Shown here: in pieces, positions 14,416-40,124 of the stretch
Numbering within the stretch: position 1 is the first letter of the stretch
Layout of the letters: the number at the start of each line of letters is the position of its first letter
Sequence record: NC_027349.1
Reading direction: 5' to 3' (one strand)
DNA from: Escherichia phage HY01
DNA: 64,000 bases
Position numbers and translations under genes: made by a program
The notes under the pieces: generated by a model
Databases searched by the model: none
What the model was told of the DNA's origin: nothing
Seen by the model: only the letters and a program-made list of their open reading frames with translations

Positions 14416-14640
14416 TTATATAACTCTCATATGCATATCAATGCCCATATCTTTAGAATAAAAATATTCATCAAGATATCCGGCAAATTTTCCTTTAATA
14501 TAAAGGACATCTTCACCGCATGGATGGTCGGCCAGGATACGAATATCCTGACGCTTGAGATTATACTTTTTCATTAAGAATTGAATTTCCGTTTCGAATT
14601 CTTCTTCATAATTAAAAGCATCATCAATGCTATATTTCAT
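14416..14640 (-). CDS. Hypothetical protein (uvsY.-1 position)
   Basis: ORF immediately downstream of uvsY, overlapping ATGA. Confidence 0.55.
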   Translation of the reverse strand: MKYSIDDAFNYEEEFETEIQFLMKKYNLKRQDIRILADHPCGEDVLYIKGKFAGYLDEYFYSKDMGIDMHMRVI

Positions 14641-15053
14641 TATTTTCCAGCCTCAAATGCTCGCATGTCTTGAATATGCTTAATAGCAAATCCACGTGAT
14701 TTTATAGCATCAAGAGCTCCGCTACAGAAATCCAATAAAATTCCCCAATATTGTAATGAAGTATCAACTTTTAAAACATCCTTATCAGCTGATAGAACTG
14801 TCTTCATTTCTGATTTCTCATAACGATCCATACTAAATTCATCACCATCTCCTCGTCCCGAGTAGTAGTCTAATTTAGCTTTAAGAGCAACTTTTTTCTG
14901 TGCGTCAATTCTAAGCATTTCCTTTTTAATACTTGAATGCTTATTAAGCCATTTACTATATAACATCACATTATTAGCTGCTTCATACTGTAATTTAGTC
15001 GAATCTATAAACACATCTTTCTTCAATTCTTCTTGAAGATCTTCTAATTTCAT
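14640..15053 (-). CDS. uvsY: UvsY recombination mediator (137 aa)
   Basis: Sequence as T4 UvsY (MRLEDLQEELKK... vs MKLEDLQEELKK here). Confidence 0.85.
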   Translation of the reverse strand: MKLEDLQEELKKDVFIDSTKLQYEAANNVMLYSKWLNKHSSIKKEMLRIDAQKKVALKAKLDYYSGRGDGDEFSMDRYEKSEMKTVLSADKDVLKVDTSLQYWGILLDFCSGALDAIKSRGFAIKHIQDMRAFEAGK

Positions 15054-16944: not shown

Positions 16945-18119
16945 TGAGTATGTTGCAACGCCCCGGATATCCAAATCTCAGCGTTAAATTATTTGAGAGT
17001 TATGACGCTTGGAGTAATAATAGATTTGTTGAATTAGCTGCTACTATTACCACATTAACTATGCGGGATTCTCTTTATGGTCGAAATGAAGGAATGCTAC
17101 AGTTTTATGATTCTAAAAATATCCATACAAAAATGGATGGGAACGAAATAATTCAGATTTCTGTAGCTAATGCAAACTATATTAATAATGTTAAAACAAG
17201 AATTTATGGATGTAAGCATTTTTCTGTATCTGTAGATTCAAAGGGCGATAACATCATTGCTATTGAATTGGGAACTATTCATTCCATAGAAAATCTTAAA
17301 TTTGGCAGACCGTTTTTCTCTGATGTAGGTGAATCTATAAAGGAAATGCTTGGCGTCATTTACCAGGATCGCACATTATTAACTCCAGCGATAAATGCTA
17401 TAAATGCTTATGTTCCTGATATTCCGTGGACTAGTACATTTGAAAACTATTTGTCATATGTCAGAGAAGTTGCTCTAGCTGTAGGAAGTGACAAATTTGT
17501 GTTTGTGTGGCAAGACATCATGGGAGTTAACATGATGGACTATGATATGATGATAAATCAAGAACCATATCCAATGATTGTTGGTGAGCCATCTTTAATA
17601 GGTCAATTCATCCAAGAATTAAAATATCCATTAGCATATGATTTCGTTTGGTTGACTAAATCGAATCCTCACAAACGTGACCCAATGAAAAATGCTACTA
17701 TCTATGCTCATTCATTTTTAGATTCTTCATTGCCAATGATTACTACAGGAAAGGGCGAAAACTCTATTGTAGTGTCAAGGTCAGGTGCTTATTCTGAAAT
17801 GACTTATAGGAATGGCTATGAAGAAGCTATTCGTCTTCAAACTATGGCGCAATATGACGGCTATGCTAAATGTTCTACTGTCGGTAATTTTAACTTAACC
17901 CCTGGCGTTAAAATTATTTTTAATGATAGTAAAAACCAATTTAAAACAGAATTTTACGTTGATGAAGTCATCCATGAATTATCAAATAATAATTCAGTAA
18001 CTCATCTATATATGTTCACTAATGCAACGAAACTGGAAACAATAGACCCAGTTAAGGTTAAAAATGAATTTAAATCTGATACTACCACTGAAGAAAGTAG
18101 TTCTTCCAATAAGCAATAA
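16944..18119 (+). CDS. 27: Baseplate hub protein gp27 (391 aa)
   Basis: Size/position as T4 gp27. Confidence 0.85.
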
Positions 18120-21469: not shown

Positions 21470-22434
21470 TGTATTCTTTAGAGGAATTTAATAATCAAGC
21501 AATAAACGCAGATTTCCAGCGTAATAATATGTTTAGCTGCGTTTTTGCGACAACTCCATCAACTAAAAGCTCTTCGTTGATAAGTTCAATTAGCAACTTT
21601 TCTTATAATAACTTGGGCCTAAATTCAGATTGGTTAGGATTGACTCAAGGCGATATTAATCAGGGAATTACCACGCTAATTACCGCTGGCACACAAAAAC
21701 TGATAAGAAAATCAGGGGTTAGTAAATATCTTATTGGTGCCATGAGTCAACGTACAGTTCAAAGTTTATTGGGCTCATTTACAGTTGGTACATATTTAAT
21801 TGACTTCTTTAATATGGCATATAATTCATCTGGATTGATGATATACTCTGTAAAAATGCCAGAGAATAGATTATCCTATGAAACTGACTGGAACTATAAT
21901 TCTCCTAATATTCGTATAACTGGGAGAGAATTAGACCCTTTGGTTATTTCATTTAGAATGGATTCAGAAGCTTGTAACTATCGTGCGATGCAAGACTGGG
22001 TTAACGCTGTTCAAGACCCAGTAACTGGACTGCGTGCTTTGCCACAAGATGTCGAGGCAGATATTCAGGTTAATCTTCATGCTCGTAATGGATTACCTCA
22101 TACTGCAGTGATGTTCACCGGATGCATTCCAGTGTCAGTGAGCGCTCCTGAGTTATCATATGATGGAGATAACCAAATAACTACATTTGATGTTACTTTT
22201 GCGTATAGAGTCATGCAGGCTGGGTCGGTTGATAGACAAGCTGCGCTTGAGTGGCTTGAATCTGCTGCTATAAATGGCATTCAAAGCGTTCTCGGAAATA
22301 GTGGAGGTGTTACTGGATTATCTAATTCGCTTTCACGACTTAGTAGATTAGGGGGAACTGCTGGAAGCATTTCAAACATTAATACTATGACAGGAATTGT
22401 CAATTCGCAAAGTAAAATATTAGGAGCAATATAA
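21469..22434 (+). CDS. 54: Baseplate tail-tube initiator gp54 (321 aa)
   Basis: Size/position as T4 gp54. Confidence 0.85.
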   Translation: MYSLEEFNNQAINADFQRNNMFSCVFATTPSTKSSSLISSISNFSYNNLGLNSDWLGLTQGDINQGITTLITAGTQKLIRKSGVSKYLIGAMSQRTVQSLLGSFTVGTYLIDFFNMAYNSSGLMIYSVKMPENRLSYETDWNYNSPNIRITGRELDPLVISFRMDSEACNYRAMQDWVNAVQDPVTGLRALPQDVEADIQVNLHARNGLPHTAVMFTGCIPVSVSAPELSYDGDNQITTFDVTFAYRVMQAGSVDRQAALEWLESAAINGIQSVLGNSGGVTGLSNSLSRLSRLGGTAGSISNINTMTGIVNSQSKILGAI

Positions 22435-22438
22435 CAAT

Positions 22439-22468
22439 GGGGACCGAAAGGTCCCCATATTTTTATTT
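22439..22468. terminator. Terminator after gene 54 (bidirectional)
   Basis: GGGGACC-GAAA-GGTCCCC hairpin plus T-run. Confidence 0.65.
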
Positions 22469-22753
22469 ACGGAATGAAATAAAAGCAGCAACTGAAGCAA
22501 CTAAACTGTCTTCAATATAAACTTCAATTTTTACCGGAGCTTCTGACTCAAATTTACCTGTTACTACACCTTGGAAAATGCTTTCAGTCTGTTCTGGCTT
22601 TGAAAAATTTTCAGAAGGAAAAATTCCGAACTTTTTATCTGTTCCAAAAATTTTGATAAATTCATCATAAACTGCTTCATTAAAAGCGTTATCAGCAGGA
22701 ATAACGCCTTCAACTACAAGTTCTTGACCTAAAAAGCGTAAAGAAGATTTCAT
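22463..22753 (-). CDS. Hypothetical protein, 96 aa
   Basis: ORF with GAGGA SD, driven by the repeated early-promoter cassette at 22761-22814. Confidence 0.5.
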   Translation of the reverse strand: MKSSLRFLGQELVVEGVIPADNAFNEAVYDEFIKIFGTDKKFGIFPSENFSKPEQTESIFQGVVTGKFESEAPVKIEVYIEDSLVASVAAFISFRK

Positions 22754-22760
22754 TTTGTGT

Positions 22761-22814
22761 TCCTCATGTTATGTCAGTAAGATTATTATAACACAACACG
22801 AGGGACTTGTAAAC
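22761..22814 (-). promoter_or_regulatory. Early-promoter cassette copy A (-35 GTTTACA, 17-nt spacer, -10 TATAAT, leader with GAGGA SD)
   Basis: Minus-strand GTTTACAAGTCCCTCGTGTTGTGTTATAATAATCTTACTGACATAACATGAGGA. Confidence 0.55.
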
Positions 22815-24871
22815 TACATCTTGAACTTTTTAGACATTCCGTTGATGTTAACCAAAGAAGCCAAGATTTGAGAAACTTCGTTTTCCTCTTCTTTTGATTC
22901 TTCTACAAGGAATTGATTAAACCCAGCCATTGGACGAACTTCACCAGTTTCCATTAGATGATCGCCATCATATACCGATTCTTCTAATTGTTCAGAAGGA
23001 GGAACGATTGTGCCTTCAATTAGATACTTGTTATAAGCAGTTTCTTTCATCATGTACGTGCTTACTTTATTAATCTTCAACAAAATTCCACGCGGTAGAA
23101 TAACTTCAGCTTCTGATGGAAATCCCGATAAATGACCTGGAACGATAACTTTGATTCGCTCAGCCCCTTTAATTACCATACCTACGCTAGTTTCAGCATC
23201 TTCATTCGCATAAGCAGAATGACTGCCCATATGCATTAAATCTTCAGCATCAACAGAACCTTCTCCTTCACCAGAAAATACTGCGCCGGAATCATCTAGA
23301 GCCATATAGTTTTTACCATGCTCACCGAAGATATTTGGTTTAAGCGATGTTGATACGAAGTTCTTGAAATAGAACATTTTATTTTCAATATTATGGCGTA
23401 AAGTTTTAAAAGTAACTTCTTGTCCACGATAAAGCGTAGTTCCTGGAGGAAGAACTGAACCTTTGGCAAAGGCAGAATCCAGCGTCTCGATGTGTTTAAT
23501 AGCTCGTTCCATATATTCTTCACGGGTAGAATCTGGTTTACCCAAGAGGAACGAGTTCATTTCAACATATGAATCTGCACAATAATCTTCAATTACATCA
23601 GACTCAGCCTGAGTCAGTCCTTTTGGAGTTACTTCGGTGCTTGCGTATTCATATGCCTGAGCAGCAGATTCATTAATCAATTTATAAATGCCATTCATGA
23701 CAAATTGAATAATAGCTACCTTTTCGTCTGGCGTGGCTTTAGAACCTTTAACTAAATCATTGATAATTTTCTTAATAACATCAAAGCTATTAGAAATATT
23801 AATGTCAGCGAGATCGCTCAAAATTTTATCGGTTTTATAATCAAAGAATTCTTTATTCTTTAAATATTCTTGAGAACCTTGATGTGTTATATCGCTCTGC
23901 AGTCTGATAGACGGATCACGTAAACGTGCATGGGCCAATGCAATATGATTTCGGAAGCTTTCTAGTTCATAATCGTTAGATTTAAAACGAGAAGCACTTC
24001 TCATACCACCGATAGCTCCTTTACCGAAGTTTGAACCAATCTGAATAACGCCAGAGTTCATTGGTCCTTCTGCTTTATATACCGGAACTTTAGATTCAAA
24101 CTCTTGATATTTCTTAGCGGCAAAGCTATCACCCTGAAGCGAAGCATCGACAGTAGAATATTGAGCTTGCGCTGCTAATCGACGACTAATTTTAGTTTTC
24201 TGAATAACAGCTTGATCCGTGCGCTTATCATTTTCTAAAGCAATAGAAGCGGCAACAGCAACAGCTTTAGGAACAGCATTACCTGTTTTAACATCTACAT
24301 AAACATCACCAACCTTTGATTCAACTTTTGTGAATAACTCAGTTGAAATAGGAGGTACACCTGGAATGTCTTCTAAATTAGCATTTTTACGGTAAACCAT
24401 AATATATGCGTACTTTTTATCGTAATCCCAGATTTCCTTTAAAAGAACATATCGACCTGCTCCTTTAGTACGTACTAAACGGTCGGCAATAACTTGCATT
24501 TGACGAGCTGCACCATTTGTTTTACTCTTTAGTACGCGGAATAAGCATGCGTCAATTTTGTATTGTTTCATTGTCTGAAGAGCAGTATCAAAAACCGCAT
24601 TAATGACACCAATTGGATTTCCACCCAAGTTTTTAAGTTTAACTAATGATAGTTTCTCATTAACACCTATCATTACGATATGCATCATTTTATCGCCTGG
24701 CTTAACGTTTTTATTTGTATCACCGCCAGAGGTGTATGTACAAAATCTAAATCCAGGAAGCACGCTTTCTTCACCGGCTTGAATAGCAAAAATTTGAGGT
24801 ATTTTATGCTTAGGATTTAAGTTAACAACCGGCGCCGAAGCGCCGTCAAATAATTCTGTAATAAGTTCCAT
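22814..24871 (-). CDS. Alt-like ADP-ribosyltransferase paralog (685 aa)
   Basis: N-terminal about 220 aa and C-terminal ART domain homologous to the adjacent alt; R-S-E motifs (YRGQ, FVSTSL, EAEVILPRG); central region diverged. Confidence 0.8.
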   Translation of the reverse strand: MELITELFDGASAPVVNLNPKHKIPQIFAIQAGEESVLPGFRFCTYTSGGDTNKNVKPGDKMMHIVMIGVNEKLSLVKLKNLGGNPIGVINAVFDTALQTMKQYKIDACLFRVLKSKTNGAARQMQVIADRLVRTKGAGRYVLLKEIWDYDKKYAYIMVYRKNANLEDIPGVPPISTELFTKVESKVGDVYVDVKTGNAVPKAVAVAASIALENDKRTDQAVIQKTKISRRLAAQAQYSTVDASLQGDSFAAKKYQEFESKVPVYKAEGPMNSGVIQIGSNFGKGAIGGMRSASRFKSNDYELESFRNHIALAHARLRDPSIRLQSDITHQGSQEYLKNKEFFDYKTDKILSDLADINISNSFDVIKKIINDLVKGSKATPDEKVAIIQFVMNGIYKLINESAAQAYEYASTEVTPKGLTQAESDVIEDYCADSYVEMNSFLLGKPDSTREEYMERAIKHIETLDSAFAKGSVLPPGTTLYRGQEVTFKTLRHNIENKMFYFKNFVSTSLKPNIFGEHGKNYMALDDSGAVFSGEGEGSVDAEDLMHMGSHSAYANEDAETSVGMVIKGAERIKVIVPGHLSGFPSEAEVILPRGILLKINKVSTYMMKETAYNKYLIEGTIVPPSEQLEESVYDGDHLMETGEVRPMAGFNQFLVEESKEEENEVSQILASLVNINGMSKKFKM

Positions 24872-24874
24872 GAT

Positions 24875-26971
24875 TTATCCTTGAACGAACTTGTAAGGCA
24901 TGTTTGTAATATCTATGCAAGACGCAATAATTCCGAGAGATGATTCTGCTTTCTGTTTAACATTTGATGAAACAAATGATGCAAAGTCAACTCTGTCTTC
25001 TATTTCAATATCACCTGTCATTGCAACTACTTCGCCGGTTTCCATTAAACGGTCACCGTCATAAATTACTGATTCGGTGAGTTCTTCCGTAGTCATAACT
25101 TCAGCTTGAATGAGTTTTGTATTATTAGATGTTGTTCCGTCATTATTAGAAGCATCAGTTATTTTATTAACTTTGACCATCAATCCGCGTGGTAGAATAA
25201 CTTCAGCTTCTGTTGCTATTCCGAGACTTCCTGGATATACAACATTAACTTTATGAGCTCCATCAATTGCCCATCCTATTTGAACTTTAACGTATTCAGG
25301 ATTTTCTTTATACGCTCTTATTTCGTTTGGATTAATAGTTATTCCTTCTTCATTTTTATCAACTGTCAATTCATTACGAGCTTCTGGTTCTAAAAGACCA
25401 ATACCAGCATGTGTAATTCCAAAACGTCCAAAAATGATAGGAGTTAAAGAAGTAGATACAAAATTTCTGAAATAGAATACTTTATTTTTAACTAGTGCTT
25501 CGTATATAGGAGCAGTCATACTTTGAGCACGATAAACTGTAATGCCTTCTGGTATACGGTCGCCATTTTCAAAAGCTGAATCTAAGTTATTTATAGCAGA
25601 TTCAATTTCTTTTTCACTCATTACATCATATCGTTCTGGATTGTAGCGTCCTAAAAGAAGATTATTGATGTCAGTATATCCTGAACCGCAATACTCTCTA
25701 ATGCCACGCTTTTGTGATGGAGTATATTTAGAACCATCACGGGCAATAGTAATATCAATCATTGGACCTGCACCAATTCCAGAAAAACTATAAATCATTC
25801 TTTTGAGGAATTTAGTTTTTGCTGCGTTCCAGGAATTTTTAGTTATTTCTTCCCAGACTTCATCTGGCTGTCCTTTACGGGTTTTATTATGTTTATCAAG
25901 CCAATTATCTTTATATTCTTCAAAGAGTTGATTAACAGCTGCTGCGTATTTCTCTAAACATTTTATTGAAGTAGTTGGTTCATTTTTAATCGCATTAAGA
26001 ATTACATCTTTAATTTTTTCAGAAACTTCATTAACCTCACTTTTTGAAAAGAATTTATAATCATAGTGAAGTTCATCTGCAGTTCCTTCGGCAATAATTT
26101 TTGCTGTCTTAGTTTTAGAAGCTAATGAATTAATTCCAAGTTTCATTTCTTCTGCTTCAGGAATTAAAGGAGCTGTAGCATGTTTATTAAAATTGGCTGC
26201 GGTAGATTCATACTTCTGGAATAATTCGCTTTCAAATCTAGAAGATTCTAATGACTGGCTTTGTGCAATTGCTCTACGGGAAATTTTAACTTTAACGATT
26301 ACAGCTTGGTCAGAACGTTTATCATTTTCTTGTGCAATAGATGCTGCAATTGCCTCATTTTTAGTTACTTGAGCTCCGGTATCTTTATTGATATAAACAT
26401 CACCGACCTTCGATTCAACTTTAGTAAAGAGCTCGGTACTAATTTCCGGAACTCCTGGAATGTCTTCTAGTGATACATTTTTGCGATGTATAAGAATATA
26501 TGCATACTTTTTATCATAATCCCAGAGTTCCTTAAGAAGGACGTATCTGCCACCTGAACGACTACGGATAAGTCTATCAGCAATAACTTGAATTTGTCGA
26601 GCTTGACCAGCAGTTTTAGACTTAAGAATACGAAGCATGCAGGCATCAATTTTATACTGACGCATCGTCTGCATTGCAACAGTAAAAACTGAATTGATGT
26701 AATTAATTGGACTTGGACCGAGACCTTTTAATTTAGCAATTGAACCTTTAGCAGTTAGTGTAAAAGGAACAATGTGCATCATTTTATCGCCCATCTTTAA
26801 ATCGCGATTAGTATCACCTCCAGATGTATAGGTACATAAACGAAAGCCTGGTTGTTCAATTGCGTCATCAACATGAACTGAAAAAATTTGTGGTATTTTC
26901 TTCTTTGGATTTAAGTTTGTAATCGGAAGAGTAGTATCTTCGTCAAATAATTCTGTAATAAGTTCCATCAT
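24875..26971 (-). CDS. alt: Alt ADP-ribosyltransferase (698 aa; start may be second ATG at 26968)
   Basis: R-S-E ART motifs (YRAQ, FVSTSL, EAEVILPRG); late promoter TATAAATA and SD upstream; matches T4 Alt as recalled. Confidence 0.85.
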   Translation of the reverse strand: MMELITELFDEDTTLPITNLNPKKKIPQIFSVHVDDAIEQPGFRLCTYTSGGDTNRDLKMGDKMMHIVPFTLTAKGSIAKLKGLGPSPINYINSVFTVAMQTMRQYKIDACMLRILKSKTAGQARQIQVIADRLIRSRSGGRYVLLKELWDYDKKYAYILIHRKNVSLEDIPGVPEISTELFTKVESKVGDVYINKDTGAQVTKNEAIAASIAQENDKRSDQAVIVKVKISRRAIAQSQSLESSRFESELFQKYESTAANFNKHATAPLIPEAEEMKLGINSLASKTKTAKIIAEGTADELHYDYKFFSKSEVNEVSEKIKDVILNAIKNEPTTSIKCLEKYAAAVNQLFEEYKDNWLDKHNKTRKGQPDEVWEEITKNSWNAAKTKFLKRMIYSFSGIGAGPMIDITIARDGSKYTPSQKRGIREYCGSGYTDINNLLLGRYNPERYDVMSEKEIESAINNLDSAFENGDRIPEGITVYRAQSMTAPIYEALVKNKVFYFRNFVSTSLTPIIFGRFGITHAGIGLLEPEARNELTVDKNEEGITINPNEIRAYKENPEYVKVQIGWAIDGAHKVNVVYPGSLGIATEAEVILPRGLMVKVNKITDASNNDGTTSNNTKLIQAEVMTTEELTESVIYDGDRLMETGEVVAMTGDIEIEDRVDFASFVSSNVKQKAESSLGIIASCIDITNMPYKFVQG

Positions 26972-26991
26972 ATCCTCTCTAGTGTTTATTC

Positions 26992-26999
26992 TATTTATA
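26992..26999 (-). promoter_or_regulatory. Late promoter TATAAATA upstream of alt
   Basis: Minus-strand TATAAATA between terminator hairpin and alt SD. Confidence 0.45.
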
Positions 27000-27000
27000 A

Positions 27001-27023
27001 AATTAAAGGCCCGAAGGCCTTTA
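27001..27023 (-). terminator. Terminator hairpin downstream of ligase operon ORF
   Basis: AAAGGCC-TTCG-GGCCTTT followed by AATTTTAT on minus strand. Confidence 0.5.
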
Positions 27024-27209
27024 ATAATCTAGTGGTAAGAGAGTACGGTATATTTCAAACTTTGGCCCTTTTTCATAGGCATCAAATGTTTCTGTAAATT
27101 TATTATAAGCATACGCATCTACAAATTCGAGAATGACTTGCGATACCGAAGTAGAAACATCTCCACCTTCTTTTTGAGCTATAACAATTGTTTCTAAGTA
27201 AGCTTTCAT
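27021..27209 (-). CDS. Hypothetical protein, 62 aa
   Basis: ORF overlapping ligase stop (ATGA), followed by terminator hairpin. Confidence 0.4.
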   Translation of the reverse strand: MKAYLETIVIAQKEGGDVSTSVSQVILEFVDAYAYNKFTETFDAYEKGPKFEIYRTLLPLDY

Positions 27210-28666
27210 AGACCAGTTACCTCATGAAAATCACCAAATACATCCTCGAATGTATTAGCTTTAGTTTTATCTTCACGTAAACGAATCACAATCGGAAGAA
27301 ATAATTTAACGTAATCAGTGCGGCCATCAGATTTTAACCAACCATTGCATTCGCACTCTAGAATTTTTCCAATATAATAATTTTGGTTTTCCATAATGCG
27401 AGTACGGTCAAGTTCATGCGATTTTACACCGGCTTTATCTTTTAAACCTGAACCAGCATTTACTTTAATTTTTCCACACTCTGATTCAAGAATAAATCCA
27501 CCTGCTTTAGTAGGGTCTTTACGGTGAGGATAAATTCCTACAATTTTTAAATCAACATCAATTACTTCTTTAAATTTATAAAGATTTTTTGAACGAGCAT
27601 TTTCCCACAATCCATCGGTATTTTTGAGAATAATACCTTCAAGACCTTGGTCAATATACTTTTTATAAATTACCTTAGCTTCATCTAGGTTATTTACTAC
27701 TTGGTTTTCAATTAAAATTACTTTATCATATCCTGATGTCATTTGTTCTAGTTTAGAAAACCGTACATCATATTTTAAACGAAACGCCGGAAGACCGTAT
27801 ATTTCTACTAACGGGACATAATCCCAGACCTGAAACTTCATACATTGAGCTTCTTTTTCTGAAATAGTTCCCTTTAAAGATTTATTGGCAATTCCATTAG
27901 AAGTAGTACGAGATTCCGCTACTTCGGCAAACTCTTTAGCTTTACTGATTTCAGGAGCATCAAAAAGAAAATCTAGGCCTTCTGGTTCCTTTTTAACTTG
28001 CTCATGGTATACCAATTCGCCATCAATTAACACACCTTCTGGATGAATCTGGCGGGCTTCTGCGGTCATTTTGATTAATTCTTCTTTAAGAAGATCTAAT
28101 CCTAGATATTCATTACCAGCTCGTGATAAAAGACGAACATCATCTAATTCATCACCTCTAACTTCAGCAAAACACCGGGCTCCATCTGCTTTTAACTGTG
28201 CAAAGGCTGGAAATTTGATATTCTTACTAATGCCTTTTTCATCATAAGAACTTGCCAGCATTTGAGGTTGTTCAGGAATTAAACCTGGCCAAACTTTATT
28301 TGCAATAGATACCGAAGCACCGCATTCGAGGTCTCGCATCATAACTCGACGCAAAACTTCAACATCATCCTTTTTACCATCAGTGATATATCCAGTTAAT
28401 TCCTCAATTGCAGCATTTCCAGTCAATTTCCGAGTAGCTAACGTGAATTCAATGAAGTCAAGCATATCGGTAATAGTCAGCATTCCAAAACTCTGAGTAG
28501 CAATACCAGGTTTAGGCCATTTCTTGATATAATACTGTAACCCACGAGAATAAGTCAGACGATATACTCGTTTAAGCAATTCGTTATCTTTATTCCTTTC
28601 AAGAATTGCTTGCTTCTGCTTAGTTGATCCAATAGATGCTATTTCATTCAGAATTTTAAGAATCAT
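27206..28666 (-). CDS. 30: ATP-dependent DNA ligase gp30 (486 aa)
   Basis: Adenylation motif KADGAR; size/sequence as T4 DNA ligase. Confidence 0.95.
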   Translation of the reverse strand: MILKILNEIASIGSTKQKQAILERNKDNELLKRVYRLTYSRGLQYYIKKWPKPGIATQSFGMLTITDMLDFIEFTLATRKLTGNAAIEELTGYITDGKKDDVEVLRRVMMRDLECGASVSIANKVWPGLIPEQPQMLASSYDEKGISKNIKFPAFAQLKADGARCFAEVRGDELDDVRLLSRAGNEYLGLDLLKEELIKMTAEARQIHPEGVLIDGELVYHEQVKKEPEGLDFLFDAPEISKAKEFAEVAESRTTSNGIANKSLKGTISEKEAQCMKFQVWDYVPLVEIYGLPAFRLKYDVRFSKLEQMTSGYDKVILIENQVVNNLDEAKVIYKKYIDQGLEGIILKNTDGLWENARSKNLYKFKEVIDVDLKIVGIYPHRKDPTKAGGFILESECGKIKVNAGSGLKDKAGVKSHELDRTRIMENQNYYIGKILECECNGWLKSDGRTDYVKLFLPIVIRLREDKTKANTFEDVFGDFHEVTGL

Positions 28667-28932
28667 TGTTCATCCTTCAGAGTTTGATTTACATTTCTAT
28701 TATAAATCAATTCATCATTAAGCTCAGGCAAAGACCTGTGATATGTAGTTCTAACTTTATTTCCTTGCATCCAATGCTTGATATAAATGAAACCTTGCTC
28801 TACACATTTTTTAAAAATTCGTTCGTCTTTTTGAGCTCGGAATTCTGGATTGCATCTAAAAAATTGATTTACGTGACCGTAATCACGTGTAGTATTACCT
28901 TCATTTTCATAAATAGTGTGAACGACAAACAT
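28663..28932 (-). CDS. Hypothetical protein, 89 aa (30.1 position)
   Basis: ORF in ATGA-overlapping early operon. Confidence 0.5.
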   Translation of the reverse strand: MFVVHTIYENEGNTTRDYGHVNQFFRCNPEFRAQKDERIFKKCVEQGFIYIKHWMQGNKVRTTYHRSLPELNDELIYNRNVNQTLKDEQ

Positions 28933-29795
28933 TAGAATGCTCCTTGGAAAATATTATCACCACTAGTAAATCTATTAAAATACCCTGCATCACCAGGCTT
29001 AGTATAACTCCACGTATGGAATGGATTCATATGATACGGGTGTGTATAATATGGATTATATGGATGTGTATAATATGGATTATACGGATTAAATCCAGGA
29101 GTTCTCCAGGTAGTGTTCCAAGGAAAAGAATCGGTTTTAACCATCTTCTCAATTACATCTTTTATAGCTTTTTCACTATCAAAACTTTCTTTATTTTCCT
29201 TCGGTGAAAAAAGCTTATTTTCTACATCATTCCATGTATAAACTCGCTGAGCGGTTTTTGGAATATTATCACGCTCTCCTCGAGCCATCCAATAAACAGG
29301 AACATTTAATATTTCACTCGCGTGGTCGCAGTGGTGAGCGAGATCGTCAATATAACAAATTACGTTATATTTCTCTTTTGCCTTTTTGAACAACTCTTCT
29401 TTTGAAGAATCATGACCACACATCATTACTTCTGAGAAGGCACCAGGAAAAAGAGCATTCAAATTAAATTGACGATTTAATAGAGCATCAATAGAATCAC
29501 CCAATGCTGTAACAGCTACAAAATTATAATCTTCTTTTAATTTGTTAATTACACACAGGGCATCTTTATATGGAGACAAGTAACGAATAAAATCTGATCG
29601 ATTGTATTTTTCAATTAACTTGACACCAAGTTCTTCATCACAATTAAAGAGTTTACCTGGAGAAATAAATTTCTCATCTTGGATCATTTTTAAAATATGT
29701 TCTAACGGAAGATTATATTTCTGAGCAAAATAAGGAAGACCTGATTGCCAGCTTAAACATACTCCATCAATATCAGTTAAAATAGTAGGCTTCAT
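28932..29795 (-). CDS. HAD-like hydrolase-fold protein with C-terminal Tyr/Pro-rich tandem repeat (287 aa; 30.2 position)
   Basis: N-terminal ILTDIDGV (DxDG motif I of HAD phosphatases); YIDD; repeated NPYYTHPY encoded by 24-bp tandem DNA repeat. Confidence 0.6.
   Translation of the reverse strand: MKPTILTDIDGVCLSWQSGLPYFAQKYNLPLEHILKMIQDEKFISPGKLFNCDEELGVKLIEKYNRSDFIRYLSPYKDALCVINKLKEDYNFVAVTALGDSIDALLNRQFNLNALFPGAFSEVMMCGHDSSKEELFKKAKEKYNVICYIDDLAHHCDHASEILNVPVYWMARGERDNIPKTAQRVYTWNDVENKLFSPKENKESFDSEKAIKDVIEKMVKTDSFPWNTTWRTPGFNPYNPYYTHPYNPYYTHPYHMNPFHTWSYTKPGDAGYFNRFTSGDNIFQGAF
29042..29089 (-). repeat. 24-bp tandem direct repeat inside the 30.2-like gene (encodes NPYYTHPY twice)
   Basis: GTGTATAATATGGATTATA occurs twice 24 bp apart. 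Confidence 0.7.
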
Positions 29796-30256
29796 AGAGA
29801 GTCTCTTAATAGGTTTAACACATCAATAAATTCAGCTTCAGTTAGTATTGTATCATCTTTTGTTAGACCACTAGCCATGCTGTGCTTCAAAACTTTTCCT
29901 TTCGAGGCTTGTAATGCATCGCGAAAGCCCCTGTTTTGGAACGCTGCTTCAAAATATGCATTTGTGTATAGCTCTTTCCACGCCGGGGAGTATCTTGAAA
30001 ACGGAACTCCAAGCCAGAACAATGTGCCACGGTCCTGAGCTCTTGCATAAGCTCGTCCAGCTTTTTGTGCGTCCAACCCGGACATCCCAAATATACGTCT
30101 TTGCTGTTCAACATTTTTCACCTTACATCCTTGGAGGAATCCTTCGAGACCTCCAAATTGGATACCATCCATAACGAAAGGCCATTGGGCAAAATTGCTT
30201 AATGCACATGATGGCCATCTAAAATTGCTTCTAATCTCTAACTCAGACATTTTCAA
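29792..30256 (-). CDS. Conserved hypothetical protein, 154 aa (30.3 position)
   Basis: ORF with translational coupling to neighbours. Confidence 0.55.
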   Translation of the reverse strand: MKMSELEIRSNFRWPSCALSNFAQWPFVMDGIQFGGLEGFLQGCKVKNVEQQRRIFGMSGLDAQKAGRAYARAQDRGTLFWLGVPFSRYSPAWKELYTNAYFEAAFQNRGFRDALQASKGKVLKHSMASGLTKDDTILTEAEFIDVLNLLRDSL

Positions 30257-30449
30257 TACTTATAATTTCAACATCAGCCCAATGACCATAGCAAGGAAGA
30301 CGAAATTCAACTGGCCAGTTAGGGTCCTTTTCTAATATAATAGACTTAACTTGTGGTTCTTCATGTTCATCGGTATACGGACCTTTATACGTTACTTTAT
30401 ATGTGACCTTAATGTACTGAATTCCAAAAATCTTATTAATTATATTCAT
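30243..30449 (-). CDS. Hypothetical protein, 68 aa
   Basis: ORF in early operon. Confidence 0.45.
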   Translation of the reverse strand: MNIINKIFGIQYIKVTYKVTYKGPYTDEHEEPQVKSIILEKDPNWPVEFRLPCYGHWADVEIISIENV

Positions 30450-30643
30450 ACTAATTCCTTTAATCCATAGATAGGAGATAATTCATCACCCATACGAAGG
30501 TCTTCATTTCCATCTACCCAGGAAACAATATAAGCTTCTTTTATTTGAACGTCTCTCCATTTAAATGCAGGCAAAACCTTAGAAATTAATCCAGGTATAC
30601 CGACTCCCTTTAATTCAACAGTTTGACCTAAAAAGAATTTCAT
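30446..30643 (-). CDS. Hypothetical protein, 65 aa
   Basis: ORF in early operon, ATGA overlap. Confidence 0.45.
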   Translation of the reverse strand: MKFFLGQTVELKGVGIPGLISKVLPAFKWRDVQIKEAYIVSWVDGNEDLRMGDELSPIYGLKELV

Positions 30644-30930
30644 TAGAACCTCATCTGAAAACCATGCGATTTAACATTACCACCACCAATGTCAGAAATA
30701 TTAATTTCACGCGCAATTGAAGGGTCAATGTCAATTTCACGGTTGAGTTTAGTGATAGCTAGAGTATCACGCCCATTTACAGTACGGAACTCTAAAGGGC
30801 AGACTACATTGACGTAGTTTTTAATCGATTCACTGGTAGGCTGCAAATGAACAGGAAGGTCTTTAGGCGCCTTTGAGAAAACCACTTCACAGAAATTTTT
30901 GCGGGTATCAAAATAAGTAGTCATAAACAT
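30643..30930 (-). CDS. Hypothetical protein (95 aa from ATG 30930; track ORF extends to 30981)
   Basis: GAGGA SD 9 nt upstream of ATG 30930; track extension would run through an intergenic hairpin. Confidence 0.45.
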   Translation of the reverse strand: MFMTTYFDTRKNFCEVVFSKAPKDLPVHLQPTSESIKNYVNVVCPLEFRTVNGRDTLAITKLNREIDIDPSIAREINISDIGGGNVKSHGFQMRF

Positions 30931-30970
30931 AGTATTTTCCTCAGTAAGGGGCCGAAGCCCCTGTTTTATT

Positions 30971-31348
30971 TTAAATATCAAATTCGTTAAGAACTACATC
31001 AAAGATTGCTTCAAGATGCTCAGGTTTAGCTCTGTTACTCAAAATATGACGAATCCAAGTTTTAACCAGAAGCTTACGATTGACGCCATTCCAGCAAGGA
31101 TGAGTACCTAAATCACGTTGACGGAAATCATCATCCAGAGCGATTTTGAAGTTGGAGCCTTCCATTGTGATTGAAACCGTGATGCCATTTTCAAATCGCA
31201 TATAAACGTAGTTAGGAGTCATATACTGTTCAATTTCGCATACTGATCCATTTTGATGTTTCCAAAGGCAAATAGTATCAATAGAACCTGCAATACCATT
31301 AGAAACATATTTACGTTCAAAGTTGATGTAGTTCATTTTATTCTCCAA
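30971..31348 (-). CDS. Hypothetical protein, 125 aa
   Basis: ORF in early operon. Confidence 0.5.
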   Translation of the reverse strand: MENKMNYINFERKYVSNGIAGSIDTICLWKHQNGSVCEIEQYMTPNYVYMRFENGITVSITMEGSNFKIALDDDFRQRDLGTHPCWNGVNRKLLVKTWIRHILSNRAKPEHLEAIFDVVLNEFDI

Positions 31349-31403
31349 GATGTTTAATTGCGGTACAGGTATATAATATCATATCCTGTACCAAAGTAAA
31401 CAA

Positions 31404-31736
31404 TTATTTTACTACTTTCCAATGCTTCATGTCAAGTTTGCCAACTTTTTTCATCTTCTCAATTAAGCGTTCAGCACGTTGGCGAGCTGTAACATAATAC
31501 CATTCACCTAATTCATTTTGTTCAATTTTTCCAACGATTACTGTATTCAATTCATAAATCCAACCAGTAAAGAAATTATGAACTTGAATTGTAAAGGTGA
31601 AATCTGTTCCCATACCTTCTGTTGTTTCTACTTCAATAATATCACCTTCAACTGCCATTAAGAACCACATAGTTTCATCATATTTACCATTGAAGCATTT
31701 AGTTTTAACTGTAGCGTTCAGATTAATCGTTTTCAT
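31404..31736 (-). CDS. Hypothetical protein, 110 aa
   Basis: ORF in early operon. Confidence 0.5.
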   Translation of the reverse strand: MKTINLNATVKTKCFNGKYDETMWFLMAVEGDIIEVETTEGMGTDFTFTIQVHNFFTGWIYELNTVIVGKIEQNELGEWYYVTARQRAERLIEKMKKVGKLDMKHWKVVK

Positions 31737-31813
31737 TTTATTCTCCTTTGTTTGTGTAAGATAATACTATCACAAAGGAACTATACTGTAAACAACTTTG
31801 TGCAATCTTTGGA

Positions 31814-31841
31814 AAATAAAAAAGGACTCCCGAAGGAGTCC
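31814..31841 (-). terminator. Strong intrinsic terminator after the small basic-protein gene
   Basis: GGACTCC-TTCG-GGAGTCC followed by TTTTTTATTTT on minus strand. Confidence 0.65.
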
Positions 31842-31846
31842 TCAAC

Positions 31847-32065
31847 TTATGCTTTCTGCTTACCAAAACGAGAAGCATCATCTCGAAGAACCGCACGTGC
31901 TCGGCGCATGATCTTCTCAACAGTTTGATTGATACGAGAGTTCGACCCACGCTTGTAACCAGCGCGTTTAGAATCACCAACTTTCTTTTCAACTGCTTTC
32001 TTTGCTTTAGCTTGTTTTGCCATTATAAATTCTCTTTTAAATGAAAATGCAGGACTTATTGGCAT
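31847..32065 (-). CDS. Small Lys/Arg-rich basic protein (72 aa, or 58 aa from ATG 32023); encoded on minus strand although ORF track labels it +
   Basis: Reverse-complement translation gives MAKQAKAKKAVEKK...RFGKQKA; followed by strong intrinsic terminator. Confidence 0.45.
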   Translation of the reverse strand: MPISPAFSFKREFIMAKQAKAKKAVEKKVGDSKRAGYKRGSNSRINQTVEKIMRRARAVLRDDASRFGKQKA

Positions 32066-32142
32066 TGCCTGCGCAAGCCCTCAAGGGGAACATAGGTTTT
32101 GTATATTTACCGACAGGATAACCATAAACCTCGTCAACATAA

Positions 32143-32391
32143 TTACTTCAGTGTTACCACAAAGTGACGAACTGCTTTTCGTGCAGCAGAAGCCAGAGGC
32201 TTAGCATACTTAAGTTCATCTTTTTCCTGAAGCTCAGCGGCTAATGCAGTTTGAGCAGGATTCAGATGTTTGAAATAACGCAGGATTTCAAGAGCTTCGG
32301 CTTCAACATCAATAGATGCGCCATAGTTTTCGTGACCATTATTCCATGCGTTTCGTTGCAGTTCAAGAGCGTGTTGTAATTGTTTAATCAT
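32143..32391 (-). CDS. rIII: rIII lysis-inhibition accessory protein (82 aa)
   Basis: Size and position between 31 and the 30.x genes as in T4. Confidence 0.65.
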   Translation of the reverse strand: MIKQLQHALELQRNAWNNGHENYGASIDVEAEALEILRYFKHLNPAQTALAAELQEKDELKYAKPLASAARKAVRHFVVTLK

Positions 32392-32538
32392 TTAAAAATT
32401 CTCGTTAGAGATTAAAACTCGGTAGTCACGTTCTTCTGAATTTCATCTTCTTTCGACAGATCTCTCAGTTGTAGACTACCACATAGAATTGTTCGGTTAA
32501 CTTATTATTCCGACACCCAATTCATATTATTATTTATA

Positions 32539-32877
32539 TCACTTATAAAGACATGGAATAGCTTTATAGTGACAGGTAACGAATTTTTGTTTAATTTCTT
32601 TTGGCTGCTTAAGACCCAGAGCTACAAAAGGATGCGGAACGTTTCGAATTTGACCAACTGGCAGAGAAGTCAAATCACCAACTTCGCAGAAACCTTCAGG
32701 AACATCAGGACCAACAGAGTGAATTACACACAGTTCAGGAACTTCACCTTGAACACGTTTACCGATAATAAGTCCTGATTCTGTAACTTCTTCATCACCG
32801 GCTTGTGCAGGTTCAGAAACTAAAATAACATATTCACCGACAGCACGAATTGGTAGTAGCTGTTGTACTTCAGACAT
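32539..32877 (-). CDS. 31: gp31 co-chaperonin (GroES analogue, 112 aa)
   Basis: Size/position/sequence as T4 gp31. Confidence 0.85.
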
Positions 32878-32933
32878 CGTTTTTCCTTTTTGTTAACAGA
32901 TGAATTAATAATAACAAATAATTCTTAAAGCAT

Positions 32934-33242
32934 TTATTTACCAATAAATTGAAGCAAATGCTCAACTTTCATACCATTAACAGAAATCAATTTGTCAATA
33001 GAAAAACCTCGCCATACACCAAGCTCAACATCAAATACTGGAATCATATCAGTAGATTCTTTCCGAGTAGATTCAGTCAATTTACCGGTTTGCATGGTTG
33101 GCATAAAGTCTGCATCACGAGTACCTTTCATAATACGAATAGTACCATCAGACTTTTCAAAAACCACGTTTGAAATACCCATGGACAATTTAGTTTTCAA
33201 AATTTCACGAATTGCTACTTTCTGTTCAGTCGTCAGTTTCAT
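32934..33242 (-). CDS. Hypothetical protein (31.1 position)
   Basis: ORF. Confidence 0.5.
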   Translation of the reverse strand: MKLTTEQKVAIREILKTKLSMGISNVVFEKSDGTIRIMKGTRDADFMPTMQTGKLTESTRKESTDMIPVFDVELGVWRGFSIDKLISVNGMKVEHLLQFIGK

Positions 33243-33479
33243 TTATTTACCTATCACAGTTTTAATATGAGTTGTTCCACGTTCTTTAAGAGTGGAAAGC
33301 AATTTTTGGCATTTTTCTAAATCAGATTTCCAACTATACGGTCTATCAATACAAACCCAGTTTGACTTATAATACTGCTTCCATTTAGAGAAAAAATACT
33401 TCTTATACTCTACAGCAAATGAAATGTTCTCGTTGGAATAAGAACTAATTGCTGTGAGTTGTACCAAACGAAATTTCAT
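33243..33479 (-). CDS. Hypothetical protein (31.2 position)
   Basis: ORF. Confidence 0.5.
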   Translation of the reverse strand: MKFRLVQLTAISSYSNENISFAVEYKKYFFSKWKQYYKSNWVCIDRPYSWKSDLEKCQKLLSTLKERGTTHIKTVIGK

Positions 33480-34060
33480 TATTCACCACAGAATTCGTTG
33501 ATATTTTCCCAATTTAACTTATTCAAGTTTTTCTTAGGAACATTAAACACTTCAATACCCGCATTTCGCAGAATATCATCCCATCCAGGTTTATTTTTAT
33601 CGTATGTTTCGCAATAAACCAGCTTTTTAATTCCAGATTGAGCTATCGCTTTTGCACAATCCTGGCAAGGAGAAAGTGTTACATACATAGTAGCACCTTC
33701 AATTGAAGAACCGTTTCGTGCAGCAAACAAAATTGCATTTAGTTCAGCATGAATTTCATTTTTAGACGACCATTCAGAGTGAGCGCTACGGTGTTCTTTC
33801 GCCAAGACAAAACGATCAGTTGAACCAAACGATACACATTCGGATTTATGACCTTGAATGATAGTATGTTTAGGTTTATTCAACAACCAACCTTGCTCAG
33901 CAGCATAATCACAACAGTTCACACCACCTGCCGGAGAACCGTTATATCCAGTAGAAATAATACGTCCATTCTTTTCAATTACTGCTCCTACCTTCCAGGA
34001 GCAACATTTGGATTCTTGTGATACTAAATATGCAATTTGAAGTACTGTACTCGCTTTCAT
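33479..34060 (-). CDS. cd: dCMP deaminase (193 aa)
   Basis: Cytidine/deoxycytidylate deaminase zinc motifs HAELNAI and PCQDCA. Confidence 0.9.
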   Translation of the reverse strand: MKASTVLQIAYLVSQESKCCSWKVGAVIEKNGRIISTGYNGSPAGGVNCCDYAAEQGWLLNKPKHTIIQGHKSECVSFGSTDRFVLAKEHRSAHSEWSSKNEIHAELNAILFAARNGSSIEGATMYVTLSPCQDCAKAIAQSGIKKLVYCETYDKNKPGWDDILRNAGIEVFNVPKKNLNKLNWENINEFCGE

Positions 34061-34395
34061 TTCATAATCACCAGATAAGCAGATTTAGCAGTTTCAACAC
34101 GATAAATTTCGTGACGAAGTTTAGTTATACTTTTAATAACAGAACTAATTATATTCTGCCCGTCTTTAAAGCGGTTTTTCTTATCAATAAAAATTGCACC
34201 AGCCATCTTTTTGTGAAGCTCAACCGGATACTTCGTCACAATAATAGCATCATACACAGAAGGATGAATACTGTTCACCAGAGTATCATTCATTAAAGTT
34301 ATTCTAATGAACTGTGCTGTGTCAGAGTCAAGCGCTCTATGATCGCCAGTATCATTTTCAAGACAATTATCAATTATATCAGTTAAATTCATCAT
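34057..34395 (-). CDS. Hypothetical protein, 112 aa
   Basis: ORF in cd-pseT interval. Confidence 0.5.
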   Translation of the reverse strand: MMNLTDIIDNCLENDTGDHRALDSDTAQFIRITLMNDTLVNSIHPSVYDAIIVTKYPVELHKKMAGAIFIDKKNRFKDGQNIISSVIKSITKLRHEIYRVETAKSAYLVIMK

Positions 34396-34628
34396 AGTAC
34401 GCCATACACCCTTTGTGCTTCAACTAATCCATCAAAATCCAGTTTAAGATGTGTTATTTGGTCACCATCACCTGGATTCACAATTACTAATACTGAACGA
34501 GGAGTTTCGGTAATAACACGAACCGATGTTTCAGGAAATCGTTCAGAAACCTTATTTACCAATTCTTGAGCAAATAGTTTAACTTTTTCTTGGAATTCTT
34601 TAACAGTAATTGGTTTTTCACTTAGCAT
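34392..34628 (-). CDS. Hypothetical protein, 78 aa
   Basis: ORF. Confidence 0.5.
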   Translation of the reverse strand: MLSEKPITVKEFQEKVKLFAQELVNKVSERFPETSVRVITETPRSVLVIVNPGDGDQITHLKLDFDGLVEAQRVYGVL

Positions 34629-35149: not shown

Positions 35150-35211
35150 TTCAATTTCCTCATTTGTTTTGGTAGAGCTATAATATCACAACTCTACCGT
35201 AAAGTAAACTA

Positions 35212-35487: not shown

Positions 35488-35489
35488 AT

Positions 35490-35690: not shown

Positions 35691-35879
35691 AAGTTTTCCA
35701 TGGTAAAGGCAGTTTAGTTTTCTTTACTGTTAGTTCAACATCAGGATTCTTTTCTCTTAATTTAAGACATTCCTCCCAAGCCCTAATTTCACTAGTGAAT
35801 ACACAAAATTGCCCATTACTAGTACCAACTAAACCGCTATTTACAATAACAATAGCCCAAGTTTCATGATGCAAAGCCA

Positions 35880-35880
<1 letters not shown>
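35683..35880 (-). CDS. Hypothetical protein, 65 aa
   Basis: ORF. Confidence 0.45.
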
Positions 35881-37628: not shown

Positions 37629-37978
37629 TTAGAAAGGTCCTGGATGTCTTCTGCGAACTTGTTGAAGGAGTTGTTGATTTGTTTTTCAACCAATCCTGGC
37701 TTATGAGCCACCACATCCGCCTTCTTTGCATCTTTGCGCAGTTTTTCATTTTCACGCTCAATAGCAGCAATTGCCTCACGATTTTTATTATTCATCGCAT
37801 CAATATAATTATACTGAATTCGCAAATTATTTAATGCTAAAGCGTTTTCATTGGCCGTTTTTGTAATTTCTACAACAGACGTTTCTAATCTTTCAATTTT
37901 ATTTTTTAAAATTAAAGAAGTTCCGCCCAATGCAATTACAATTAATAACAAGCCTGTTGTCGTATTACTTAATTGCAT
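37625..37978 (-). CDS. Inner-membrane coiled-coil protein, probable i-spanin (117 aa)
   Basis: N-terminal TM helix GLLLIVIALGGTSLIL followed by helical charged domain; overlaps o-spanin start. Confidence 0.6.
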   Translation of the reverse strand: MQLSNTTTGLLLIVIALGGTSLILKNKIERLETSVVEITKTANENALALNNLRIQYNYIDAMNNKNREAIAAIERENEKLRKDAKKADVVAHKPGLVEKQINNSFNKFAEDIQDLSK

Positions 37979-38472
37979 AAAGTTTTAATAACCTCTATAA
38001 TATCGTCTTGAGAAAGACCGTTAATTAAAATATGATGTTCAGCCGGAGATTTAGAAATTTTAAAGCATGCCTCAACATCTTCTGCCATATCCGATGCGCT
38101 ACGATTTGGATTACTAATTCCAAGACGATGTTTTCCCGTTAAAGGATTAACGATGATATAGCATTTACAGTTATTAATATGAACATTAGGTTGAGTCTGA
38201 TTAATGAATACATCACAATCATATTTCGCAAGCTGATTTTCTAAAAAGACTTTCATCTCCTCAACTGCATCAGGAAGCATATCACGGGCTTGCTCAAGAC
38301 GACGATTTCGATATTCTTTAATGGTCGTTTTCCGCTTGACTTGCTTAGCTAAATCTTTCTTAAGATCGGTGATATATCCAACTCGACGATTTCCTTTAAA
38401 TACAGAAATCCCATCTGTAGTATCACCGTATGCTTCAACGACCATCTCAGTAGTAATAAGCTGCAAATCCAT
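37969..38472 (-). CDS. alc: Alc, host transcription terminator on dC-DNA (167 aa)
   Basis: Size/position as T4 Alc. Confidence 0.7.
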   Translation of the reverse strand: MDLQLITTEMVVEAYGDTTDGISVFKGNRRVGYITDLKKDLAKQVKRKTTIKEYRNRRLEQARDMLPDAVEEMKVFLENQLAKYDCDVFINQTQPNVHINNCKCYIIVNPLTGKHRLGISNPNRSASDMAEDVEACFKISKSPAEHHILINGLSQDDIIEVIKTLCN

Positions 38473-38479: not shown

Positions 38480-38533
38480 TCCTCATGTTATGTCAGTAAG
38501 ACTACTATAACACAACACGAGGGACTTGTAAAC
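38480..38533 (-). promoter_or_regulatory. Early-promoter cassette copy B upstream of alc (52/54 identical to copy A)
   Basis: Same 54-bp sequence with two C/T differences that turn -10 TATAAT into TATAGT. Confidence 0.5.

Positions 38534-38536: not shown

Positions 38537-40124
<1,588 letters not shown>

Follow-up and report, generated by a model that had tools for sequence, protein, structure and literature searches.

Why should two early promoters of a T4-like phage, lying 15.7 kb apart, be almost identical over their whole length? The question arises in a 64,000-nt stretch of the genome of Escherichia phage HY01 (NC_027349.1; hereafter the window), where a 54-bp sequence holding an early promoter, a leader and a Shine–Dalgarno (SD) sequence stands on the minus strand upstream of alt.-3 (22761-22814, copy A) and recurs upstream of alc (38480-38533, copy B). 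The window sequence matches that of the Tequatrovirus Escherichia phage PEC04 (KR233165) with 100% identity. The original prediction read the repeat as a recent promoter transplantation or gene conversion. Our analysis keeps the copying between loci and changes the rest, since the copying is old and the design of the element, a promoter within a hairpin, had been missed: the 54-bp unit is probably a composite cassette of the promoter-early stem-loop (PeSL) type, in which an early promoter lies inside a hairpin predicted to mask the ribosome-binding site, and which would have been ancestral at alc and copied from there to alt.-3.

A search for the 54-mer GTTTACAAGTCCCTCGTGTTGTGTTATAATAATCTTACTGACATAACATGAGGA returned copy A with 0 mismatches and copy B with 2, such that 52/54 positions are identical and the two substitutions read TATAATAAT in copy A versus TATAGTAGT in copy B. 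By chance 0 matches are expected (100 dinucleotide-preserving shuffles), and a general repeat search of the window recovered the same 54-bp pair. The identity breaks off exactly at both edges of the 54-mer: at the 5′ edge the alt.-2 stop codon TAG overlaps cassette base 1 in copy A and the rnlA stop codon TAA lies 3 nt upstream in copy B, while at the 3′ edge the spacers between SD and ATG are unlike, ACACAAAATG in copy A and CTTTATAATG in copy B. A consensus scan found −35 and −10 boxes at both copies, TTTACA-17-TATAAT at copy A (11/12) and TTTACA-17-TATAGT at copy B (10/12), each with a TG-extended −10, and A-rich runs (AAAAAGTTCAA and AAAAAATTTAT) stand upstream of the −35, both within upstream coding sequence. 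The recurrence at this distance with two substitutions, the make-up of the element as promoter, leader and SD, and the place of the second copy upstream of alc are all as originally described. The parts of the two copies are as follows.

22761..22814, minus strand: cassette copy A (alt.-3 copy), with early promoter, hairpin, leader and SD; exact 54-mer, between the alt.-2 stop and the alt.-3 ATG
22808..22813, minus strand: copy A −35 hexamer TTTACA (promoter scan)
22785..22790, minus strand: copy A −10 hexamer TATAAT (promoter scan), at the top of the hairpin, its first base being the last base of the 5′ arm
22790..22803, minus strand: copy A hairpin 5′ arm, cassette positions 12-25, CCUCGUGUUGUGUU, the promoter spacer with anti-SD CCUC (fold of 22745-22830, minus strand)
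22762..22775, minus strand: copy A hairpin 3′ arm, cassette positions 40-53, GACAUAACAUGAGG, leader and SD core GAGG (fold, pair list)
38480..38533, minus strand: cassette copy B (alc copy), the putative ancestral site; 54-mer with 2 mismatches, between the rnlA stop and the alc ATG
38527..38532, minus strand: copy B −35 hexamer TTTACA (promoter scan)
38504..38509, minus strand: copy B −10 hexamer TATAGT (promoter scan)
38509..38522, minus strand: copy B hairpin 5′ arm, cassette positions 12-25 (fold of 38464-38549, minus strand)
38481..38494, minus strand: copy B hairpin 3′ arm, cassette positions 40-53, including the SD core (fold, pair list)

The T4 early promoters reviewed by Hinton (2010; PMC2988021) have the same GTTTAC −35, TG-extended −10 and A-rich upstream region, and the same placement before early genes. 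Ordinary early promoters, however, share a consensus only. Nine early-promoter-like sites were found on the same strand of the window, and whereas the cassette pair matches at 52/54 positions, the other 35 pairs match at 24.6 on average and at 35/54 at most. This rules out the view that the identity is a generic feature of early promoters, which the original prediction had named as a finding that would tell against it.

What the earlier account of the 54 bp lacked is that they form an inverted repeat: positions 12-25, the promoter spacer, can pair with positions 40-53, the leader and SD. Folded with short flanks, copy A has a predicted energy of −23.7 kcal/mol (z −4.46) and copy B of −26.9 kcal/mol (z −4.55), and 0/200 shuffles fold as well. 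The core helix pairs positions 12-25 with 40-53 and holds in its loop both the −10 hexamer, at positions 25-30, and the predicted start site, placed at ∼37 from the position of the −10, with the 5′ arm ending at 25. A 6-bp TGTTAT/ATAACA stem, considered as the sole structure, was superseded, as the fold of the full read-through RNA gives the long helix. Neither copy matched any Rfam 15 covariance model (E ≤ 1, region 22000-39500). That the hairpin ties spacer, leader and SD to one another by pairing is the best reason why the block of 54 bp behaves as one unit.

How the hairpin could act depends on which RNAs contain it, and thus on the genes around each copy. These are given here, together with the terminator-like site that ends the alt.-3 unit.

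22463..22753, minus strand: alt.-3 open reading frame (ORF), 96 aa, served by copy A; 100% protein identity to T4 Alt.-3, annotated alt.-3 in T4
22437..22458, both strands: bidirectional terminator-like hairpin ending the alt.-3 unit, convergent with gene 54 (terminator scan; 9-bp stem, 6 GC pairs)
22814..24871, minus strand: alt.-2 ORF, 685 aa, a full-length Alt paralogue upstream of copy A (ORF list)
37969..38472, minus strand: alc ORF, 167 aa, inhibitor of host transcription, served by copy B; annotated alc in related records
38537..39661, minus strand: rnlA (gene 63), upstream of copy B; 5′ end from the 1125-nt rnlA coding sequence in related records

The ORF list gives the rnlA frame as 38537-39697, from an upstream GTG; the start used here is set by the annotated length. 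The terminator scan that finds the site at 22437-22458 detects no terminator between copy A and alt.-2, and no terminator-like site in 38200-38900 around copy B. Since the alt.-2 stop codon overlaps cassette base 1, transcripts from alt.-2 read through copy A; at copy B it is the rnlA transcripts that run through.

In the mechanism we propose, each cassette would be a strong sigma-70 early promoter (−35 TTTACA, 17-nt spacer, TG-extended −10) followed by the leader and SD of the next gene. RNA entering from rnlA or from alt/alt.-2 holds both arms and would form a 14–17 bp hairpin that buries the ribosome-binding site, while RNA from the cassette's own promoter, if it starts in the loop near position 37, holds the 3′ arm only and would leave that site open. 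The predicted probability that the SD is unpaired is ∼0 in read-through RNA and 0.8–0.9 in alc RNA from its own promoter. The predicted cost of freeing the SD is 11–12 kcal/mol in read-through RNA versus 2–3 kcal/mol in RNA from the own promoter, and for the ribosome-binding site the corresponding figures are 19–25 kcal/mol and 3.2–3.5 kcal/mol; without the 5′ arm, the leaders are near-unstructured (−4.5 and −3.2 kcal/mol, z > 0, no better than shuffles). Translation of the downstream gene would then depend almost wholly on that gene's own immediate-early transcript, and the masking would insulate alc and alt.-3 from the middle and late transcription units upstream.

We sampled the region upstream of alc in 35 IMG/VR T4-like contigs and in RB69, VR20, NC-G, VAC36 and CF1. 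In most of these sequences alc is preceded by a GTTTACA promoter, and pairing between its spacer and the leader and SD recurs although the primary sequences are quite unlike: examples of spacer and leader arms are UCUCCAUUUGGUUGUGU with ACACUAACCAAAUGGAGA, UCCUCAUUUUGUUG with CAACAAAAUGAGGA and CCUCUCAUUUUU with AAAAAUGAGAGG, and further pairs are CCUCGUUUGUU with AACAAACGAGG and UCUCCUCAU with AUGAGGAGA. Folded one by one, 14 distinct alc upstream sequences gave z-scores of −3.5 to −7.1, with the SD masked in 12/14. When pairs were counted with the −35 as anchor, pairing of spacer positions 2-16 with the leader was seen to be maintained by numerous double changes, position 6 occurring as CG, AU, UA, GC and GU and position 8 as CG, UA, AU, GC and UG. 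This anchor is independent of the fold, but the 3′ partners were taken from each predicted fold, so that the count leans towards structure; the per-sequence z-scores are free of that bias. RNAalifold applied to a MAFFT alignment of the many-genus alc leaders returned no structure, the arms being out of register between genera. These data point to a device that would be ancestral at alc and kept with compensatory changes in most Tevenvirinae genera.

Outside Tequatrovirus the alt.-3 promoter is simpler. In Dhakavirus, Gaprivervirus, Mosigvirus, Marfavirus and Moonvirus (14 contigs and five GenBank records), alt.-3 has an early promoter with a short CCACA-AGGA-UGUGG-type spacer hairpin only, and its SD is free. 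The flanks of the site are orthologous between genera, with ...TTCAAAATGTAG abutting TTTACAA on the left and ACATGAGGA abutting A.ACAAAATG on the right, and the Tequatrovirus cassette shares its architecture, plus sequence such as GTTGTGTTA, with alc promoters elsewhere. Since the alt.-3 promoter is simpler in five other genera and the cassette has the architecture found at alc, it appears that the alc cassette moved onto the alt.-3 site, and the claim that the identity reflects copying between loci is borne out. On the simplest reading of these sequences, the tract from −35 to SD was copied from alc to alt.-3 in the Tequatrovirus stem lineage and replaced an older promoter there; the two short motifs already common to both promoters may have anchored the copying. 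Concerted evolution of the pair in other genera is unsupported, as global alignments give paralogue identities of 0.65–0.74, orthologue identities of 0.66–0.72 and a cross-locus identity of 0.67.

An arrangement of another kind was seen at alc in Gaprivervirus, where VR20 (14623-14856) and three further sequences carry an extra alc-like ORF between rnlA and alc, with an unlike leader. Here a GC-rich hairpin lies over the −35, and 3′ of the −10 there is a second hairpin, by which the SD is masked (as folded) in the own transcript too.

How old is the copying? A 74-nt query around copy A gave 998 matching places, two to a genome, from 501 phage records, of which a single one lies outside Tequatrovirus. 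T4 has both copies, 1 base apart, as does T6, where they are 5 bases apart, and in 18 sampled genomes, as in ∼500 records, both cassettes keep to these two gene junctions, with no indel seen to be bounded by the cassette. The presence of the pair in ∼500 genomes rules out a recent event private to this phage, and since both copies are found in ∼500 Tequatrovirus records, T4 and T6 included, the copying predates the radiation of the genus; the description of the duplication as recent is therefore not upheld. In the 18 genomes in which both copies were read, copies A and B of one genome differ at 0–5 positions (mean 2.11), while A and B differ at 2.49 between genomes; among orthologues the diversity amounts to 2.9 for A and 1.5 for B. 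The copies are thus no more unlike each other than they are unlike their own orthologues. HY03 and Ge15 were left out of this pairing owing to a rearrangement and an insertion sequence (IS) respectively, and an exact-pattern scan of IMG/VR yielded 6 stretches, too few for population analysis. That the copies are still 0–5 differences apart would follow from the youth of the genus (2–5% divergence) and the constraint on the stems, and occasional further exchange may contribute.

The variation within the genus falls largely where the predicted hairpin would tolerate it. Common polymorphisms lie in the loop (positions 27, 29, 32, 33, 34) or outside the helix (position 11), the stem changes C15U, G16A, G40A and C42U keep the pairing in every case, and across 17 haplotypes 99.2% of cells are paired. 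In the T6-type variant of copy A (C11U, C15U, G16A) the helix extends into the A-specific flank, with a predicted energy of −25.7 kcal/mol (z −6.3).

The sole non-Tequatrovirus match among the 501 records, a partial one, is in Mosigvirus LF82-41 (PV660463). There, a 66-aa ORF lying between denB and ndd has a promoter (∼16985-17043) with TATAGTAGTCTTACTGA-AACATGAGGAACACAAAATG. This corresponds to the 3′ half of copy A as it stands in Tequatrovirus, down to the spacer between SD and ATG that is specific to that locus, without the 5′ arm. It looks like a half-cassette transfer between genera and loci. Three of the Tequatrovirus genomes also showed changes of their own. G28 (MG867727) has an exact 351-bp tandem duplication (995-1345 and 1346-1696 of the compared stretch) that takes in the end of rnlA, the cassette and ∼50 codons from the start of alc, so that this phage has three cassettes and, in addition, a truncated alc ORF; it is either a real recent duplication or an assembly artefact, and it was rejected as evidence of recombination mediated by the cassette, the junction lying within alc and rnlA and not at the cassette. 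In Ge15 (PP359696), IS-type transposase genes (annotated InsC and InsD) occupy 8510-9544 in the gene 30.x region and the distance between the copies is longer. In HY03 (NC_031047), the gene order breaks within an alt-like gene (538-1534), and beyond the break lies an unrelated opposite-strand block (a nudix hydrolase, a lysozyme-like gene, tk and others), through rearrangement or misassembly.

Could the repeat be the mere footprint of a recent duplication or of ongoing conversion of ordinary promoters, its complementarity functionless and the repeats mainly recombination substrates? Copying between the loci did happen, no position separates the two loci across the genus in the 18 genomes, and three haplotypes are found at both loci. 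Two copies from one genome resemble each other slightly more than A and B paired at random (2.11 vs 2.49 differences; permutation p = 0.026). The TATAATAAT two-site state is present at A only in PEC04, NBEco003, sb1-4, 4E10 and others and at both loci in ZCEC15 and G28; records with this state exactly at B (REP2/3, UFV05-11, KMB39/40 and others) have no match to the exact PEC04-type A 74-mer, and it is by this non-match, not by direct reading, that the A haplotypes of REP2/3, UFV05-11 and KMB39/40 were judged. PeSL pairs, moreover, recombine in RB49 and phi1. Against this, the copying is old and fixed in ∼500 genomes, sites 29 and 32 occur in all four possible combinations, and the shared variable sites are unconstrained loop sites, so that recurrent mutation can explain the sharing. 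Ongoing gene conversion between the copies is thus possible and weakly suggested, and recurrent mutation may account for the same pattern. The alc hairpin is kept by compensatory changes in genera that have no second copy, and its complementarity must therefore be selected and not accidental. Nor do the copies suit the role of deletion or inversion substrates that had been suggested for them. They are direct repeats, and inversion between them is therefore impossible, while a crossover would delete genes 30 and 31, which lie within the intervening 15.7 kb and are essential in T4; the deletion product would thus not be viable. The only extra copy seen, that of G28, stems from a tandem duplication joined at a point outside the cassette. 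Taken as the whole explanation, a functionless footprint seems to us improbable.

Two further accounts accept the hairpin and give it another task. It might act on transcription, terminating or attenuating polymerase that arrives from rnlA or alt/alt.-2, or stabilising the 3′ ends of the upstream mRNA, with the promoter restarting transcription. The predicted stability of the hairpin at both copies is in accordance with this, the stem-loop of an RB49 PeSL lowered the expression of lacZ placed downstream to an extent similar to that of rrnB T1 (PMC2839356), and the SA20RB record has a WebGeSTer ‘rho-independent terminator’ annotated exactly over copy A. An intrinsic terminator is nevertheless ruled out by the lack of a U run after the stem at either copy, and the terminator scan is blank at both copies yet finds a true terminator 300 nt downstream. 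In 12/14 lineages, the 3′ arm ends precisely in the SD and the 5′ arm starts with the anti-SD, neither of which a terminator needs. Transcription and masking roles can coexist, and we regard an action on transcription as the explanation of the hairpin as unlikely. The hairpin might also serve translational coupling, if ribosomes ending rnlA or alt.-2 melted the helix base such that translation of alc or alt.-3 on the long RNA needed upstream translation. The stop codons do adjoin the cassette at both copies, their placement is conserved in other genera, and the anti-SD begins only 11–12 nt past the stop codon. A terminating ribosome, however, reaches only the first few pairs of the 14–17 bp helix, and the T4 alc and alt.-3 proteins are earlier than those of rnlA and alt, which speaks against dependence on upstream translation. 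We would give coupling only a small chance of being correct.

The preferred reading, an early promoter within a hairpin that masks the ribosome-binding site, has its own difficulties, which weigh against it as follows. In the own alt.-3 transcript the predicted probability that the SD is unpaired is only ∼0.02–0.03, through a weak 5-bp pairing of the SD with codons 3-4 that opens for ∼3 kcal/mol. Two haplotypes break a pair, C12A and G16U, the latter in the alc copy of T6, and no double compensatory change was seen among the 17 haplotypes within Tequatrovirus, where divergence is too low for it. RB69-type phages have no mask at alc and show a small spacer hairpin only, so the mask is dispensable in at least one genus. 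With the upstream stop codons 0–3 nt from the cassette, terminating ribosomes would cover the helix base and could open the helix, which would make the hairpin a coupling device rather than a block. Finally, the authors who described PeSLs ascribe their stem-loops to transcription termination or attenuation and not to translation (PMC2839356; PMC4122927).

The temporal classes of the T4 genes bear on the same point. In a T4 time course (supplement of PMC9697503), both alc and alt.-3 have early RNA and early protein, while rnlA has early RNA and late protein and alt has middle RNA and late protein; alt.-1 and alt.-2 have middle RNA, and their protein class is not assigned. These classes are what separate early promoters at alc and alt.-3 predict, and masking is compatible with them, though not proven by them. 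They also fit the earlier suggestion that the two copies could co-regulate their downstream genes.

Neither the cassette class nor the masking principle is new in kind, as both have already been published. PeSL cassettes of T4-type phages, the work of the Krisch laboratory, have a stem-loop between their −35 and −10 boxes or over the −10 (Arbiol et al. 2010, PMC2839356; Comeau et al. 2014, PMC4122927). Like them, the present cassette follows an upstream stop codon and consists of a sigma-70-like early promoter with 17-nt spacing and a stem-loop round the −10, then SD and ATG; the PST/T4 consensus TTTACW-N17-TAYWAT fits both copies. PeSLs are likewise repeated within a genome and have been proposed and shown to recombine and move as units, and both the transfer from alc to alt.-3, as we read it, and the LF82-41 half-cassette would be shuffling of the published kind. 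The cassette differs in that its copies are near-identical (96–100%) over the whole 54 bp and not merely similar, and in that they lie 15.7 kb apart round essential genes, whereas PeSLs flank ORFans in hyperplastic regions and go together with indels or swaps of ORFs between close relatives. Its stem is not made of a G-tract and a C-tract, no AT-rich intergenic spacer precedes the −35, which coding sequence reaches, and its 3′ arm is the SD, pointing to translational masking rather than the proposed termination.

The closest parallel for the masking itself is found in T4 e, soc, 49 and I-TevI, whose hairpins have been shown experimentally to mask the ribosome-binding site and enclose an internal promoter (review PMC3014915). 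There, too, the upstream RNA hides the SD and/or AUG, the internal promoter gives a shorter, translatable RNA without the 5′ arm, and the temporal class of the protein departs from that of the read-through RNA. Unlike the cassette, these genes have a late internal promoter (TATAAATA) and silence early or middle RNA. Since the promoter of the cassette is an early sigma-70 promoter, its mask, which is predicted only, would silence middle and late read-through RNA, a mirror image of that arrangement. The cassette works like the T4 late-promoter masks and is not a strict member of their family. Three aspects are modestly new: that an early promoter is used in mirror image, that alc shows clear covariation, and that the transplant to alt.-3 can be dated.

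Some observations in the rest of the window touch the same themes. Four other early promoters have hairpins round the −10 (47812-47876, 35146-35209, 31332-31401 and 31733-31793, all on the minus strand; z −2.1 to −4.6), and at 31733-31793 UUCCUUUGU pairs with ACAAAGGAG, masking its own downstream SD with 9 bp; the early promoters at 62832 and 52492 have no hairpin round the −10. A sub-threshold Rfam match to Atu_C8, a Rhizobiales sRNA, at 31808-31891 (minus strand; 30.9/30.8 intergenic; 31.4 bits against a gathering threshold of 50, E 0.0064) is probably a chance match to a terminator-like hairpin. The 16-nt core GGGACCGAAAGGTCCC of the alt.-3/gene 54 bidirectional terminator (22440-22455) also occurs at 8920-8935. 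Upstream of copy A, alt (24875-26971) and alt.-2 (22814-24871) are full-length paralogues with ∼72–97% identical blocks at 2094–2097 nt spacing; in T4, all that is left of the second alt copy, by decay, is the pair of small ORFs alt.-1 and alt.-2.

If spacer, leader and ribosome-binding site are bound to one another by pairing, they would be copied and conserved together as an indivisible block, and the pair would be a clean, datable case, from a very well-studied phage genus, in which one promoter gave way to an entire regulatory cassette. The hairpin predicts a layer of control for two T4 early genes, those of the host-transcription inhibitor Alc and of Alt.-3, a non-essential, uncharacterised product; when it is extended at the C-terminus, T4 can evade the CmdTAC defence (PMC11618068). 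Wherever T4-like phages are engineered or T4 early promoters reused, the presence of an anti-SD inside the promoter spacer would also be relevant. More tentatively, and with rather less confidence than we place in the cassette itself, the alc cassette may be a conserved, portable ‘temporal insulator’ that allows a protein to be made only from its own immediate-early RNA, whatever the amount of middle or late RNA passing through its gene, and its transfer to alt.-3, which lies downstream of the late-expressed alt genes, may mean that late synthesis of Alt.-3 is selected against. If true, selection against late Alt.-3 synthesis would give a handle on the function of alt.-3.

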